From: Arenicellales bacterium
Lineage (GTDB): Bacteria > Pseudomonadota > Gammaproteobacteria > Arenicellales > Poriferihabitantaceae
Assembly (NCBI GenBank): GCA_965116595.1
Contig: OZ220708.1
Span: 169,187 to 233,186 of the forward strand
Direction of reading: 5' to 3'
Length of the DNA: 64,000 nt
Part shown: in pieces, positions 56,667 to 63,300 of the stretch
Numbering within the stretch: the stretch's first letter is position 1
Layout of the letters: every line of letters begins with the position of its first letter
The notes under the pieces: generated by a model
Told to the model about the DNA's origin: nothing
Seen by the model: only the letters and a program-made list of their open reading frames with translations
Database searches by the model: none
Program-made: the position numbers and the translations under genes

Positions 56667-56807
56667 TTGAAACCCATCACCGAAACCGAGGTCGAAGGCA
56701 CCGCGCTTGAATGGCTTGCAGGTCTCGGCTGGAACATCGTCCACGGCCCGAACATCGCCCCCGATACGCCGGGCGCGGAACGCGCTGACTACAGCAAGGT
56801 GACGCTG
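56667..56807 (+). pseudogene. hsdR: Remnant of an hsdR 5' end (first 47 codons only)
   Basis: 122 of 141 nt are identical, without gaps, to 60358-60498 (manual alignment). TTG replaces ATG. Homology stops abruptly at 56807. Confidence 0.85.
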
Positions 56808-56819
56808 ATGAAATTCGGA

Positions 56820-57236
56820 TCAGTCAATACCCAAAGCCTCAAAAGCCAGCTTCTTGACACACGCTACAAGTATCTCTGTTGATACTTTTATGCCGGTCTT
56901 CTGGATTTCATTTACAGCCTTTTCATACTGGCTTGCAGCGTTCCTTACATATTCTCCACCTTCTTGCGACAATCCATCCATGTAGGAAATGATAATACTT
57001 CGCCCTTCCAGTGTGCTTGCATCCAAAGTGCCTCCATCTAGCAAACCGGCTTGGATGGAACAAATAACAGAATAGTCAATGTTCGCCTGGTCATGATTCG
57101 GGAAAGCGGCATACAGGTCTGACGGACATAAATTTGATGGATACGGCACATCATCGCGCGCGAAGTGTCGAAGAATGTTCAACGTCAATTCTGTGTTTTC
57201 TATCATTGGTTCTTTACACCCTCTATCGGCAGGCAT
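56820..57236 (-). CDS. Small hypothetical protein, possibly DUF2513-like wHTH
   Basis: It is the third gene of the low-GC cassette. The C-terminal pattern IISYMDGLSQEGGEYVRNAASQYEKAVNEIQKTGIKVSTEIL...LAFEALG is reminiscent of DUF2513 (I.GLT.EGHEFL...). This is a weak assignment from memory. Confidence 0.4.
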   Translation of the reverse strand: MPADRGCKEPMIENTELTLNILRHFARDDVPYPSNLCPSDLYAAFPNHDQANIDYSVICSIQAGLLDGGTLDASTLEGRSIIISYMDGLSQEGGEYVRNAASQYEKAVNEIQKTGIKVSTEILVACVKKLAFEALGID

Positions 57237-57240
57237 TCAC

Positions 57241-58902: not shown

Positions 58903-59983
58903 GGGAAATTAAATGTTCAGGGGTTACAAGTAAATTTCCTATTGCTTCGGCAAGTTTGACTGGCACAGCATTCCCTATCCATCTCCCGACTTCCGAAAAG
59001 GAGGGTTTCTCCTCTGGTGGCAGAAACTCATAATAATGCGGAAATGACTGCAAAATAGCGGCTTCTCGAAGGGATATGGCCCGATCCTGTTCGGGATGCC
59101 CGAACCGGCCATTACCATACCCGTAACACTGGGTTGTCATGGTCGGAGATGGATTGTCCCAAGTCATACGCGCATATACGCTGGCAAAGGTCTTGCCTGA
59201 AAGTTTACGGTGGCAATCAGCGCGCAAATCTTCCGGCCAGTCACGCCAAGTGCCCCCCGGCTTTGAGGCTCGAATACGGCGAAAATTGATTTCCGCCAAT
59301 GATCGCGAGATGTGCAACGGGTCTATGGGATTTGGCTGGCCCGCTTCAATTTTATCGAGCGACCCTATTGCCTGACGAACAGATATTGCTTCTGCATGTG
59401 TCGGTTTCAGTGGTTCAAGTCCTACTGATCTTGAAGCGACCAAAACCAACCGTCTGCGTTTTTGAGGGATCCCGAATTCCTCACATTTCACTATGAACCA
59501 CTTGACATGATAGCCTGCGCTATCCAGATTATCACAGAAATCATTAAAAACACGTCCATCCTTGTATTTGATCAGCGCCGGCACATTTTCCATGGTTACA
59601 AAGTCCGGCTGCACCGTTACGGCCAACTCTCCAAATTTCGCAACCAGTTCCCATCTTGGGTCTTCGCCATAGCGATGTTTATACGTTGAAAATGGCTGGC
59701 ACGGAGCGCATCCCGCAAGAACGGAAGGTACAGTACCCGTATAGTGGCTTTGAACTTCCCTGGCCGTTAGTTTCCCAACATCCCGAGCGAAAAAGCTGGC
59801 GTTGTTGTTTTTTTGAAAAGCGTATTTGCATCGGGCATCTACATCATATCCTGCGATGATATCGAAACCCGCCAGCATCAAGCCGTGACTGAGAGCTCCA
59901 ATGCCGCAAAAAAGATCAACGACCTGACCCCTGTCCTCGCCAGTGTAAGGCATCCCGTGTTCGGTTAACATGGAGTTAACCAT
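58889..59983 (-). CDS. dcm: DNA (cytosine-5)-methyltransferase
   Basis: All diagnostic motifs are present: DLFCGIG (I), GCAPCQPFS (IV), MENVPAL (VI), QKRRR (VIII) and GNAVP (X). Confidence 0.95.
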   Translation of the reverse strand: MVNSMLTEHGMPYTGEDRGQVVDLFCGIGALSHGLMLAGFDIIAGYDVDARCKYAFQKNNNASFFARDVGKLTAREVQSHYTGTVPSVLAGCAPCQPFSTYKHRYGEDPRWELVAKFGELAVTVQPDFVTMENVPALIKYKDGRVFNDFCDNLDSAGYHVKWFIVKCEEFGIPQKRRRLVLVASRSVGLEPLKPTHAEAISVRQAIGSLDKIEAGQPNPIDPLHISRSLAEINFRRIRASKPGGTWRDWPEDLRADCHRKLSGKTFASVYARMTWDNPSPTMTTQCYGYGNGRFGHPEQDRAISLREAAILQSFPHYYEFLPPEEKPSFSEVGRWIGNAVPVKLAEAIGNLLVTPEHLISRGIS

Positions 59984-60357
59984 GGCTTCGGGTTGCCATG
60001 GAACAACCGCTGCACATTAGGTATCAGGTACCTTAAGGGTTGAAAAGGCTATTATACACTATAATCTTTTGCAGTGAGATTCTATTAGGGGCACTGACGC
60101 AGTGGTTGGGGCAGATATTCCCAGCTCGGCTAATTGTGGAGTATGATCAGCCAGAAATATGTGATTGAAGTATGGGATGTTGTCAATGTTAAATGAAGGA
60201 CAGCGATGTGCCTGCATAATGTATTTTCCAGTGAAGAGTTGAGGGCGATGTCAACTACCGAGGATTCCTCAGTAGTTCAATCCGAAGGTGAACGGACAGT
60301 TTCGCGAAAAGTAAACCACTATAACCTCATCTTAAATTTGCTATCGCCTCCACTCGA

Positions 60358-63300
60358 ATGAAAACCATCACCGAAACCGAGATCGAGGACGCCGCGCTCG
60401 AATGGCTTGAAGGTCTCGGTTGGAACGTCGTCCACGGCCCCGATATCGCGCCCGATACGCCGGACGCGGAACGCGCTGACTACGGCAAGGTAGCGTTGGA
60501 ACGACGGCTTCGTGATGCACTGGCCCTGCTCAATCCCGTTCTGCCCGAAACCGCCCTTGAGGACGCCTTCCGCAATCTGACCAGACCCGGAGGGGCCACG
60601 CTGGAAGCCCGCAATCGCGCTGTCCACCGGCTGCTGGTAAACGGTGTGACGGTGGAGTATCGAGATGCCACTAGTGCGATTCGGGGCGCACAGGCACGGG
60701 TAATTGACTTTGACGACCCGGATCGTAACGACTGGCTCGCGGTCAATCAGTTTACCGTCGTCGAGAACAAACACGAGCGTCGCCCGGATATCGTGTTGTT
60801 CGTAAATGGGTTGCCGCTTGGTGTGATAGAGCTCAAGAATCCGGCGGACGAGGGCGCTACGATTTGGAGCGCTTGGCAACAATTCCAGACTTACAAGGCC
60901 GAAATCCCCTCACTGTTTGCCTTCAATGACGCGCTTTTCATTTCCGACGGAGTGGAAGCGCGGGTCGGCACGCTGACCGCCGGTCGGGAATGGTTCAAGC
61001 CATGGCGAACGATCTCTGGCGAGACTTTGGCCGATCCGAACCTGCCGCAGTTGCAGGTGATGCTCGAAGGCGTCTGTGCACCAGCTCGGTTTCTCACATT
61101 GATCCGCAACTTCATTGTATTCGAAGACGACGGCGGCGGCACGTTGATCAAGAAAATGGCTGGATACCACCAATTCCACGCAGTTGGGACAGCGGTTTTC
61201 GAGACGCTAAGGGCAGCCAGATTGCAGCGAATTGCGGATGTAGATGGCGCCGGACGTTACGAGTCCGGCCGTAAAGCGGGCGGTAAATCTGGCGACCATC
61301 GCATTGGCGTCGTCTGGCATACCCAGGGTTCGGGCAAAAGCCTGACCATGGCCTTCTATGCCGGGCGGATTATCCGTGAACCGGCGATGGAGAACCCGAC
61401 GGTGGTGGTGCTTACTGACCGCAACGACCTTGACGACCAGCTCTTTGGCACCTTCTCGCGCTGCACCGACCTGCTGCGCCAGCCTCCGGTACAGGCAGAA
61501 ACCCGGGCAGATTTGCGCGACCGGCTTACGGTCGAATCGGGCGGCGTGGTGTTCACTACCATTCAGAAATTCTTCCCGGAGGAGAAGGGAGACCGGTATC
61601 CCCTGTTGTCGGAACGCCGCAATATCGTCGTGATTGCCGATGAGGCACACCGCAGCCAGTACGACTTCATTGACGGCTACGCCCGCCACATGCGCGACGC
61701 GCTGCCCAACGCCTCGTTCGTCGGCTTCACCGGCACGCCAATTGAGCTTCAGGACGCCAATACGCGAGCAGTGTTCGGCGACTACATCAGTATCTACGAC
61801 ATCCAGCGTGCGGTTGAGGACAGGGCGACAGTACCGATCTACTATGAAAGCCGTCTCGCCAGACTGGCGCTGGACGAGCACGAGAAGCCGAACATTGACT
61901 CCGGTTTTGAGGAGGCGACCGAGGGTGAAGAAGTCGACCGCAAGGAGAAACTCAAGACCCGATGGGCACAGCTTGAAGTCATCGTCGGCTCAGAGAAGCG
62001 TGTGACTCTCATCGCTCAAGACATCGTGGATCATTTCGAACGCCGCCTGGAAGTGATGGACGGCAAGGCGATGGTCGTCTGCATGAGCCGCCGCATCTGC
62101 GTTGACCTTTACCGGGAGTTGGTACGTCTGCAACCGGATTGGGAACACGAGGACGACAGCAAGGGGCAAATCAAGGTCGTGATGACCGGCTCCGCCTCCG
62201 ACCCGCCCCACTGGCAACCACATATCCGCAACAAGTCACGGCGTGAAGCGCTGTCGAAGCGTTTCCGGGACACTGACGATCCACTTCGGCTCGTACTGGT
62301 ACGTGACATGTGGCTGACCGGCTTCGATGCGCCCAGCCTGCACACAATGTATATCGACAAGCCGATGCACAGTCACGGGCTGATGCAGGCAATCGCGCGG
62401 GTCAATCGCGTGTTCCGGGACAAGCCGGGCGGCCTCGTGGTTGATTATCTGGGTCTTGCCCATGAACTGAAGCGGGCGCTCACCACCTATACCGAGAGCG
62501 GCGGCACAGGACAGACAGCGCTGGACCAGGCGCAAGCGGTTGCGGCAATGCTGGAAAAGTACGAAGTCTGCCGCAGTCTGTTTTACGGCTTCGACTGGTC
62601 CAAATCGGTTACCGGTACATCAGCGGAAAAACTGGGCCTGCTGCCAGCGGCGCAGGAACATATTCTGGCGCAGGAGAACGGTAAAGACCGTTGCCTGAAA
62701 GCGGTGCGGGAACTCTCCCAGGCCTTTGCACTCGCCGTACCCCATCAGGACACGAGTCGTATCCGGGATGATGTCGCGTTCTTTCAGACCGTCCGCTCGG
62801 TACTGGTCAAGCGCGCTGACGCCGAGGCGCAACCTCTGGAGAATCTTGATCTTGCCGTGCGCCAGATTGTCTCACGGGCTGTGGCATCGGAAGGGGTAAT
62901 GGACATCTTCTCCGCCGCCGGGCTTGATAAGCCCGACATCTCGGTCTTGTCTGACGAGTTTCTCGCCGAAGTGAAAGGCATGCCCCAACGCAACCTCGCG
63001 GTCGAACTGTTACAGAAGCTGTTAAAGGGCGAACTTGCGACCCGAAAGCGGAAGAACATCACCCAGGCCCGCTCTTTCGCCGAGATGCTGGAGCAGACGA
63101 TGCGACGTTATCAGAACCGTGCCATCGAAGCCGCGCAAGTGATTGAGGAATTGATCGGAATTGCCAGGGACTTGCGCGAAGCGAACGCCCGTGGCGAGAA
63201 ACTCGGGCTGTCGGATGATGAACTGGCCTTCTACGACGCACTCGAGATCAACGAAAGCGCTGTTCAGGTACTTGGCGACGAAACCCTGCGTGACATCGCC

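Follow-up and report, generated by a model that had tools for sequence, protein, structure and literature searches.

Why should the operon of a Type I restriction-modification (R-M) system carry the start of its hsdR gene twice, with unrelated genes in between? We asked this of a stretch of 64,000 nucleotides from an Arenicellales bacterium (contig OZ220708.1), called the window below. By direct alignment, 56667-56807 and 60358-60498 match without gaps at 122 of 141 bases, the longest identical stretch being 19 nt. The homology covers codons 1-47 of hsdR, with 36 of 47 residues identical at the protein level; its left edge lies exactly at the start codon and its right edge at 56807 and 60498, respectively. 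Since the runner-up ungapped match of the 141-mer on both strands of the window reaches only 59-60 of 141, the repeat is not a chance one. A sequence-only reading of this DNA had described the duplicated 5' end, the TTG that replaces ATG in the upstream copy and the run-off of its frame, and all three descriptions proved accurate: after 24 unrelated codons the frame meets a stop at 56880-56882. As it had stated, the copies enclose three genes on the minus strand and a spacer of 374 nt (59984-60357). It had also described an AT-rich insertion. At 45.8%, the GC content of 56808-60357 is indeed lower than that of hsdR (59.3%), hsdM (55.9%) and the window as a whole (53.0%), but the low-GC zone does not start at 56808: it extends leftwards into a PD-T4-7-like gene (44.9%), and hsdS is likewise low over its distal half (~38-43%).

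The resident operon begins with hsdM (50991-52592, plus strand; Pfam N6_Mtase 4e-107, HsdM_N), the Type I methyltransferase subunit gene, which is syntenic in the related loci L085, L086 and L087. Embedded between hsdM and hsdS is a HEPN-type gene (NTase_sub_bind; 52831-53274, plus strand; Pfam PF08780 8e-20, TIGR01987). According to its translation and its Pfam and PADLOC matches, hsdS (53265-55613, plus strand) is a single 782-aa ORF in which an MNT nucleotidyltransferase, TRD1, an in-frame DUF559 insertion and TRD2 follow one another, an architecture common to the relatives. It is followed by the PD-T4-7-like defence gene (55615-56664, plus strand; PADLOC PD-T4-7 1e-38), which is the older cargo; its protein is 90.5% identical to the L085 orthologue and its stop codon lies 2 nt 5' of the upstream repeat copy, hsdR'. 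The downstream copy (60358-60498, plus strand) constitutes codons 1-47 of the intact hsdR (60358-63492, plus strand), whose 1044-aa product has the full HsdR domain set (Pfam HSDR_N, SWI2_SNF2, T1R_D3-like and T1RH-like_C) and is 92-93% identical to its relatives. The hsdR alleles of close relatives are mosaic, with the nearest relative switching along the gene, and hsdR is a substrate of recombination.

What, then, is hsdR' (56667-56807, plus strand)? It does not belong to any longer functional ORF, and judging by its sequence it is a pseudogene remnant, the non-functional scar of an earlier resident hsdR, of which codons 1-47 are left. The roughly 13% divergence between the copies had been taken to mean that one of them came from a different allele. 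Comparison with relatives weakens this argument. Of the 19 differences, 11 occur only in the hsdR' of the window, and nine of these private changes are non-synonymous, the loss of ATG among them, so that most of the divergence is due to later decay. Only seven of the 141 sites (5%) differed between hsdR' and hsdR before the split from the L089 genome, five of them synonymously, and of the 13% only this share of about 5% would reflect a difference between alleles. The private changes look like neutral decay. The L089 fragment has accumulated 13 private changes of its own and the L085 orthologue has been shortened to 79 nt. The earlier rejection of a target-site duplication is nevertheless upheld. 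In our judgement hsdR' is very probably a decaying remnant which marks a recombination junction at a hotspot for cargo.

The duplication is old, going back to an ancestor common to at least two other sampled genomes. The junction of the 141-nt hsdR' with the gene that follows it is identical in L087, L088 and L089, which sample one genome in separate ENA and Logan assemblies and are 92.1% identical to 56668-60364 of the window, and a third genome, L085, has an eroded version of it. The set of genes that lies between hsdS and hsdR differs in each of the eight relatives compared. The same chromosomal site could be demonstrated for five genomes (L001, L002, L004, L085 and L086); L087, L088 and L089 have the upstream flank in common with the window, and L003 is a close relative with a different downstream flank. 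In L086 an independent hsdR' of 270 nt brackets a RhuM/Fic gene, and hsdR remnants of about 28-30 nt are found in L001, L003 and L002. Erosion of such fragments can be seen when L085 is compared with the window and when L001 and L003 are compared with L086. The homology between the window and L087 starts exactly at the start codon of hsdR', and the fragment has thus acted as a boundary in recombination.

Did the genes between the copies arrive together, as the sequence-only reading proposed? The hsdR homology ends at 56807, and 56808-56819, the junction with the 3' flank of the next gene, is presumed to be an illegitimate join. This next gene (56820-57206, minus strand) is conserved and encodes 128 aa. 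Its frame is open to 57236, giving an ORF of 138 aa, but all homologues start at the equivalent of M11 of that ORF or a few residues upstream. Eight homologues have 126-135 aa and identities of 52-100%, and one of its homologues, in L090, lies in an unrelated locus where the homology ends 5 nt after the stop codon. The protein has no match in Pfam, NCBIfam or PADLOC; its AlphaFold model (pLDDT 81.5) gave weak MarR/PadR-like matches in Foldseek (E about 2e-3), and a winged-helix-like fold is predicted. The Type II R-M cassette (57228-60095, minus strand) is 97.1% identical to 6782-9650 of L002, whereas hsdR is only 88% identical between the same two loci. Its left end is identical in three contexts with different neighbours, and no terminal inverted repeats were found when we looked for them. 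The cassette comprises a restriction enzyme candidate with an N-terminal GHKL ATPase domain, related to BbrUII/HgiDII (57241-58902, minus strand; Pfam HATPase_c_3 4e-19, PADLOC REase_II 3.5e-39), and a C-5 cytosine DNA methyltransferase (58889-59983, minus strand; Pfam DNA_methylase 2e-55; TIGR00675 138.8 bits, over the cut-off). The candidate scores 294.9 bits against NCBIfam NF050001 over residues 10-375, under the 550-bit cut-off, and a homologue with 64% amino-acid identity stands beside an m5C methyltransferase on a Paracoccus plasmid.

Comparison with relatives resolved the spacer itself into remnants: the region upstream of the methyltransferase, still within the cassette (59984-60095), a part common to L085, where it lies upstream of a Schlafen gene (60099-60293), a decayed piece of RhuM/Fic corresponding to aa 54-95 (60203-60328) and the final 33 nt of the RhuM/Fic gene (60325-60357). 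The sequence-only reading had presumed that hsdR is transcribed from this spacer. Its sole promoter-like site (60118-60147) is weak, and the promoter scan found fewer sites in the spacer than in shuffled sequence. Everything between the copies is a patchwork whose pieces were inherited separately. A three-gene cassette that came as one unit does not fit an R-M pair which has its own left end and which L002 carries (97% identity) without the flanking 141-nt repeat, nor a spacer made of decayed RhuM/Fic. Arrival in one event is contradicted by an arrangement that was inherited and is common to L089 and L085. The search of related junctions for alternative cargos was rewarded.

The phenomenon extends well beyond this bacterium. 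Two independent samples of this HsdR family gave N-terminal hsdR fragments in 15 of 86 and 12 of 76 loci, or 27 of 162 in all; about one in six related Type I loci has them, and these come from many bacterial phyla. Thirty-one of 32 fragments lie upstream of hsdR and in the same orientation, and none of the 32 is antisense. All begin within HsdR residues 1-20; their ends vary from residue 21 onwards, 31 of the 32 ending by residue 94 of about 1044 and one at 209. Perhaps, and this is a guess, they are short because of selection against long truncated HsdR. For the eight fragments first found using the HsdR of the window, the distance to the full gene downstream is 0.7-1.9 kb, and over both surveys it ranges from about 0.25 to 4.6 kb. 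The bracketed defence genes include TIR, PIN, Abi, Mrr and Schlafen, and each of three loci (L039, L054 and L062) contains two or three fragments. For roughly 10 of 24 fragments, the allele of another locus is far closer than the adjacent full gene; the L161 fragment, for example, shares 87.7% identity with the L062 allele and virtually none with its own hsdR. In some cases, the fragments would therefore be of foreign origin. The proposal that the hsdR start is a hotspot for cargo exchange is borne out by the differing cargos of the relatives, by the separate duplicate in L086 and by these family-wide counts, and we consider it well supported that the hsdS-hsdR junction, and the hsdR start especially, acts as one.

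How could such a scar arise? In this operon the hsdR start codon directly adjoins the last cargo gene or overlaps with it, and therefore adding cargo without losing the old one requires a left join inside hsdR. Homologous recombination alone, as originally suggested, is unable to make the duplication, and one end must be an illegitimate join. We hypothesize that the incoming block consisted of foreign DNA, cargo first and then an hsdR 5' end of its own. On its right side the block would have recombined homologously within hsdR, while its left end would have been joined illegitimately 141 nt into the resident gene, the whole step being homology-facilitated illegitimate recombination; single-crossover integration of a circularised fragment would give the same product. 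The resulting order would be the PD-T4-7-like old cargo, hsdR', the new cargo and an intact hsdR. Since then, hsdR' has drifted neutrally and the RhuM/Fic gene that first lay between the copies has decayed into the spacer, the gap now being taken up by the separately mobile Type II R-M pair and the small winged-helix gene. Such an additive, one-sided step, leaving the scar of an earlier hsdR, is in our view the best explanation overall and a somewhat probable one; for the specific mechanism, the chances appear to be even.

Could the duplication instead have arisen within one genome? Unequal crossing-over or replication slippage might have duplicated RhuM/Fic in tandem with the first 141 nt of hsdR, foreign genes being inserted later while the upstream copy decayed. 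The L087 repeat unit is in fact longer: a RhuM remnant together with the hsdR 5' end stands on either side (74% identity over 295 nt). The fragment inferred for the ancestor and the downstream allele disagree at no more than seven of 141 sites, and seven of the 24 fragments find their best match in the allele of their own locus. At those seven sites, however, the fragments share the state of the L002, L086 and L003 alleles and not that of the adjacent lineage, a foreign allele is much closer for roughly 10 of the 24 fragments elsewhere, and the constant presence of heterologous defence cargo between the copies is left unexplained. We regard this origin as unlikely. A long metagenomic contig whose copies diverge as strain variants do might also be suspected of being a chimera, the assembler having fused a variant in which PD-T4-7 precedes hsdR with another in which R-M precedes it. 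This suspicion is effectively refuted by the same junction in three contigs of other assemblies (92% overall identity) and its eroded version in L085; moreover, there is no sequence overlap at 56807/56808 that could mislead an assembler.

Low-GC cargo flanked by direct repeats of a gene end, a pattern that many phyla show at this same end, also recalls a site-specific integrative element which carries a replacement hsdR 5' end, the copies being attL and attR. This is highly improbable, because no integrase, transposase or relaxase domain was found in the cargo of the window or in ten bracketed cargo proteins elsewhere, the fragments end anywhere from residue 21 to 94 with no fixed core, terminal inverted repeats are lacking and the pieces that make up the gap here were inherited separately. 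Is hsdR' perhaps kept for a function, whether to end translation that is coupled to the gene before it, to supply an N-terminal HsdR peptide with a modulating effect on restriction or to be preserved as a homology arm? The fragments always contain the very start of hsdR directly after the stop codon of the preceding gene, and the boundary with L087 falls exactly on the fragment's start codon. We nevertheless think this very unlikely: ATG has been lost in both the window and L085, the window and L089 fragments disagree at 15 of 47 residues, residues conserved across the sampled homologues are altered (A12T, D29N and G43S), and lengths vary (141, 79, 270 and about 30 nt).

The additive one-sided step has close parallels. 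Orphan toxin-immunity arrays of Rhs/CDI systems form by C-terminal displacement (Jackson 2009, Poole 2011 and Koskiniemi 2014, as cited in PMC5361080), and a model of the same logic has been proposed for the T6SS effector-immunity arrays of Vibrio cholerae and Rhs orphans (PMC5361080). There too, a conserved gene adjoins a hypervariable module, the incoming module brings a piece of that gene, a homologous crossover is paired with an illegitimate one, and the old module is retained with a fragment of the conserved gene attached; repeated events give stacked arrays, as in L039, L054 and L062 here, and no recombinase takes part. The hsdR case is its mirror image, with the conserved gene downstream and its 5' end left upstream; its modules are anti-phage defence genes in a Type I R-M operon rather than toxin tips with immunity genes, and the displaced piece has no coding role.

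Homology-facilitated illegitimate recombination was studied in transformable bacteria (de Vries and Wackernagel 2002, Prudhomme 2002 and Meier and Wackernagel 2003, as cited in PMC5361080) and in E. coli conjugation (PMC3240628). It likewise combines one homologous anchor, here the mosaic hsdR, with one illegitimate end, and foreign DNA is gained without the machinery of an element; classical events, however, usually delete recipient DNA beside the anchor and usually do not duplicate a part of it. Integrative islands at tRNA genes rebuild the end of their target gene. In them, too, low-GC cargo lies between direct repeats of a gene end that have diverged, and the gene is left intact, but the hsdR case lacks an integrase and a fixed crossover core, its fragments vary in length, and it involves the 5' and not the 3' end of the gene. 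The rlo genes of Campylobacter jejuni are an example of defence genes that lie within Type I R-M operons. PrrC is another. A further case is TgvAB in VPI-2 of V. cholerae (PMC11411939), and more embedded candidates were given by Payne et al., as cited there. As with rlo and TgvAB, unrelated and strain-variable defence genes lie among the hsd genes of the window, their counterparts being HEPN/MNT, the PD-T4-7-like gene and the Type II R-M pair. The reports that we found on such loci give their content and make no mention of hsdR 5' fragments as traces of the way in which cargo is added. In this bacterium, a decaying 141-base hsdR start marks where extra defence genes entered ahead of hsdR.

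In this work we have examined an upstream copy of the start of hsdR, which we call hsdR', and the genes that separate it from the functional gene. The two copies (56667-56807 and 60358-60498) align without gaps at 122 of 141 positions, and since the next best ungapped placement of the 141-mer in the 64-kb window, on either strand, reaches only 59-60/141, the repeat is real and the duplication described in the sequence-only reading stands. It corresponds to codons 1-47 of hsdR (60358-63492), whose complete 1044-aa ORF carries HSDR_N, SWI2_SNF2/ResIII, T1R_D3-like and T1RH-like_C domains and is predicted to encode a full-length HsdR. 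Homology between the copies begins precisely at the start codon, which in hsdR' is TTG; after the repeat the frame adds 24 unrelated codons and stops at 56880-56882. We rejected the idea that hsdR' is the start of a longer gene, as its ORF has 77 aa and its tail just overlaps an opposite-strand gene of 128 aa. A target-site duplication was likewise rejected, the repeat being too long and too diverged and a transposase being absent. As the two copies have a longest identical run of 19 nt, loss of the cargo by recombination between them is expected to be uncommon. The interval between the copies (56808-60357) is indeed AT-rich, with 45.8% GC compared with 59.3% for hsdR and 53.0% for the window, but it does not delimit the low-GC zone, which already starts before the repeat in the gene at 55615-56664 (44.9% GC).

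The surrounding Type I operon already carries a number of passenger genes and has housekeeping genes on both sides, with an acyl-CoA synthetase at the upstream and a HisA/HisF-family (His_biosynth) gene at the downstream flank. The hsdM gene (50991-52592; N6-adenine methyltransferase PF02384, 4e-107; HsdM N-terminal domain PF12161, 1e-27) has a free-standing DUF559 gene just upstream (50413-51009) and is followed by a HEPN-type gene (52831-53274), hsdS (53265-55613) and a PD-T4-7-like gene (55615-56664; PADLOC PDLC04066, 1.1e-38 over residues 12-303) with a putative anti-phage role. HsdS is a single 782-aa ORF composed of an MNT nucleotidyltransferase, TRD1, an in-frame DUF559 and TRD2. It has two target recognition domains (Pfam Methylase_S, residues 117-293; PADLOC Specificity_I, 116-322 and about 556-779) and the presence of MNT and DUF559 within its reading frame is unusual. 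The DUF559 (Vsr-like endonuclease) segment is flanked by 'SPLEGES' peptide repeats, and the one-ORF architecture is common to four loci of related genomes (L002, L003, L085 and L086). At a further related locus, L087, hsdS has 613 aa without DUF559, and about 125 nt stand in place of window 54261-54849. The segment resembles a small mobile element that does not interrupt the reading frame of its host. Both DUF559 copies have a 70-115-nt repeat on either side (50433-50520, 50927-50995, 54216-54354 and 54809-54878), which occurs in many copies in related loci; window 50437-50511 and L086 4803-4877 are 98.7% identical. Elsewhere in the window, a 28-nt motif occurs three times at 47060-47309 with a spacing of 111 nt, each copy matching L001 6982-7009, between hsdR and the His_biosynth gene of that relative, and the region 4000-8000, which adjoins tRNA-Thr (7315-7390), has 63-67% GC against 53% for the window. 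Exact-sequence look-ups gave no match for the window HsdR, the PD-T4-7-like protein or protein P0001.

The interval between the copies holds three minus-strand genes. The 128-aa gene (56820-57206) is conserved, and its homologues of 126-135 aa indicate a product of 128 aa, not 138. The protein has no match in Pfam, NCBIfam or PADLOC; its structural model suggests a winged helix (pLDDT 81.5), and because the fold-search matches, which are MarR/PadR-like, are weak, we assigned no regulator role to it. The other two genes form a restriction-modification (R-M) cassette (57228-60095), in which a candidate nuclease with a GHKL ATPase domain and a C-5 cytosine methyltransferase (PF00145, 2e-55; TIGR00675, 138.8 bits with a cut-off of 100.65) are adjacent and overlap at 58889-58902. 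The nuclease scored 294.9 bits against NCBIfam NF050001, under the equivalog cut-off of 550; its residues 10-375 align with positions 1-370 of the 659 in the profile and its C-terminal third differs, so that we regard it as a relative of the BbrUII/HgiDII kind over its first 370 residues and not as a full-length member. A homologous nuclease-methylase pair was found on a Paracoccus plasmid, while for the nuclease a PDB sequence search gave no match and a metagenome scan no relative. The 374-nt spacer between the methyltransferase gene and hsdR (59984-60357) is composed of the methylase upstream region, a decayed RhuM/Fic gene (60203-60328, residues 54-95) and the final 33 nt of a RhuM/Fic gene, abutting hsdR. 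It had been presumed that hsdR, detached from hsdMS, is transcribed from this spacer. A promoter and terminator scan found four promoter-like sites, where 7.7 were expected from shuffles, with a weak candidate at 60118-60147. In EcoKI, hsdR and hsdMS are normally under separate promoters (PMC12707154), so a detached hsdR is no surprise.

Does the same site carry other genes in related bacteria? Contigs of relatives, reached through HsdR homologues at 85-93% identity, showed the chromosomal site of the window at five loci (L001, L002, L004, L085 and L086); at L003 the downstream flank differs. The hsdS-hsdR interval held a different gene set in every one of the six. L001 has a 56-aa ORF, a 306-aa gene with partial homology to the PD-T4-7-like gene, and RhuM/Fic; L002 a KAP NTPase, a 265-aa gene, a DEAD helicase, a 100/150-aa pair and the R-M pair of the window; L003 AAA_16, the 100/150-aa pair, a deleted RhuM, a minus-strand 120-aa ORF, the 265-aa gene and the helicase; L004 a minus-strand 207-aa ORF, KAP and a Schlafen/HATPase_c_4 gene; L085 a PD-T4-7-like gene and Schlafen; and L086 a 261-aa gene, a called 99-aa HSDR_N fragment and RhuM/Fic. 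L086 is an independent duplicate of the hsdR 5' end around different cargo. The sequence-only reading had suggested looking for alternative cargos flanked by the same 141-nt segment; alternative cargos were found, and in L086 the duplicate, about 270 nt long, brackets RhuM/Fic. Short remnants of the hsdR start also lie at module junctions in L001 (~30 nt) and L003 (~28 nt), and in L002 one of ~30 nt directly follows the R-M cassette. As in a displacement array, both the window and L086 have a co-oriented hsdR fragment on an older module beside the full copy. In L002 we also observed another partial-gene duplication that brackets the R-M cassette: a 75-aa ORF (9777-10004) just upstream of hsdR duplicates the C-terminal half of the 150-aa gene (6294-6746), which is located on the opposite side of the cassette, with 74.7% amino acid identity.

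Homologues of the 128-aa protein led us to L087, L088 and L089, separate assemblies that represent another related genome and match window 56668-60364 at 92.1%. The junction between position 141 of hsdR' and the flank of the 128-aa gene is identical in them, so an assembly artefact is ruled out, a chimera being rejected on the same ground, and the event is older than the split of the lineages. Homology with this genome starts precisely at the start codon of the fragment, to the left of which it carries a 380-aa gene and a RhuM remnant, not the PD-T4-7-like gene. L085 has the PD-T4-7-like gene and the TTG start in common with the window and a fragment of only 79 nt, followed by a RhuM piece (residues ~12-44), three short remains of the R-M cassette, which begin where the cassette of the window has its left end, a counterpart of window 60099-60293, the Schlafen gene and hsdR. 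At L090, an unrelated locus that contains the 128-aa gene, homology to the flank of this gene stops at 56815. The left end of the R-M cassette is constant beside three different neighbours, and the cassette is 97.1% identical to that of L002, whereas hsdR is only 88% identical; both facts argue that the cassette moves independently of the repeat. The proposal that one three-gene cassette arrived by the duplication event is therefore not supported.

The two copies diverge by about 13%, which had been taken as a sign that the fragment came from a different allele. We compared the window, L089 and L085 fragments with seven functional hsdR alleles. Eleven of the 19 differences are private to the window fragment, nine of them non-synonymous, the loss of ATG included, and only seven (five synonymous) are common to the window and L089 fragments; one, at position 135, belongs to neither group. 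In the L089 fragment, 13 changes are private. As the majority are private and mostly non-synonymous, the divergence is mostly neutral decay after an old event, which weakens the argument from divergence. At all seven shared sites the fragments have the state of three to five of the five functional alleles outside the window/L085 pair, and about 5% of divergence separates the displaced allele from the present downstream allele lineage. We also considered a functional peptide from hsdR'; in the fragment, A12T, D29N and G43S change residues that are conserved among the homologues inspected. The hsdR alleles of close relatives are mosaics, indicating that hsdR does recombine.

We then searched the flanks of each locus with its own first 120 HsdR residues. 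Among 86 loci from 80 GTDB-species genomes and six close relatives, 15 carried 19 fragments, all upstream and on the same strand; in an independent sample of 76 usable JGI metagenome loci, 12 carried 13 fragments, 12 of which were upstream and co-oriented, one downstream and none antisense. Together, 31 of 32 fragments were upstream and co-oriented, and about 17% of the 162 loci, all of one very widespread HsdR family with several thousand hsdR genes, bore them. All fragments start within residues 1-20 and end at residues 21 to 94, with one exception beyond 94. Several loci have two or three stacked fragments, and different modules are bracketed at orthologous loci. The bracketed cargo includes a ThsB-like TIR with an 8xMP membrane protein, a DUF4143 ATPase, a PIN toxin, Abi_C, Mrr_cat, a deaminase-HATPase_c_4 protein and Schlafen-HATPase_c_4. 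With different cargo in each relative and fragments throughout the family, the view of the hsdS-hsdR junction as a cargo-exchange hotspot is strongly supported. The only fragments that are not N-terminal are C-terminal hsdR pieces downstream of the full gene in L021 (14927-15614) and L070 (19404-19667). This HsdR is 71-82% identical in amino acid sequence across metagenome-assembled genomes (MAGs) labelled Binatia, Dehalococcoidia, Acidobacteriota, Longimicrobiales, Latescibacterota, Gammaproteobacteria, Nitrospirales and Spirochaetia, among others, and the identity is 75-82% over a set of more than eight groups at phylum level; such values suggest a very wide and probably recent horizontal spread.

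How do these fragments arise? The most economical reading is an additive one-sided recombination of the homology-facilitated illegitimate kind, in which we infer the join and its direction, as well as any microhomology. In five or more of the fragment-bearing loci, the end of the last cargo gene and the hsdR start codon overlap, and where cargo abuts or overlaps that codon, adding new cargo with the old cargo intact requires a join inside hsdR. Incoming DNA with cargo plus hsdR would recombine homologously inside hsdR, and its other end would be joined illegitimately a short way into the resident hsdR, the 5' end of which would be left behind as a scar; single-crossover integration of a circularised fragment would be equivalent. 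Scars would later shorten by erosion (141 versus 79 nt in the window and L085; 270 versus ~30 nt in L086 and L001 or L003). The 5' end might instead have been duplicated in situ, an alternative that we considered; for roughly 10 of 24 fragments a foreign allele is much closer than the adjacent gene, and for seven of 24 the own allele is the best match. A site-specific integrative element was considered as well. Against it, no integrase or recombinase domain was found with Pfam, NCBIfam or PADLOC in the products of the three genes between the copies or in ten cargo proteins bracketed at other loci, the crossover core is not fixed, as the spread of fragment ends shows, and a repeat search of the R-M cassette found neither terminal inverted nor terminal direct repeats.

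A bolder extension of one-sided recombination, which we think rather unlikely to be right, is that the hsdR 5' end, intact or as a fragment, serves as the portable homology arm of a recombinase-free cassette exchange. Defence modules would move between genomes, even of different phyla, linked to a few hundred bases from the 5' end of an hsdR that is unusually conserved, and would insert at whichever copy is resident, with a scar left by every additive insertion. The Type I operon would then act as an integron-like collector of defence genes. If the loss of addictive cargo (R-M and toxin-antitoxin pairs) is selected against, additive events would be favoured over replacement.

That Type I operons can harbour embedded defence genes is well documented (PMC11411939), and a displacement model was proposed for Rhs orphans and the T6SS effector-immunity arrays of V. 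cholerae (PMC5361080), of which the hsdR scar mechanism would be the mirror image. In the literature searched, we met no description of N-terminal hsdR fragments as marks of added cargo. We see here a new form of a known kind of process. The 'truncated hsdR' of staphylococcal SCC elements is a different matter. The finding in the window is correct but is ordinary defence-island history, and its molecular mechanism is not new. To our knowledge, how defence genes enter Type I operons without mobile-element machinery has rarely been addressed. The hsdR scars offer a readable record of additive acquisitions, and an N-terminal hsdR fragment upstream of hsdR is a simple bioinformatic marker for recently added, possibly novel, defence genes. 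Bracketed unannotated genes, such as the 128-aa gene of the window and those of 209 aa in L050 and 126 aa in L039, two loci of other genomes, are candidates for new defence functions.
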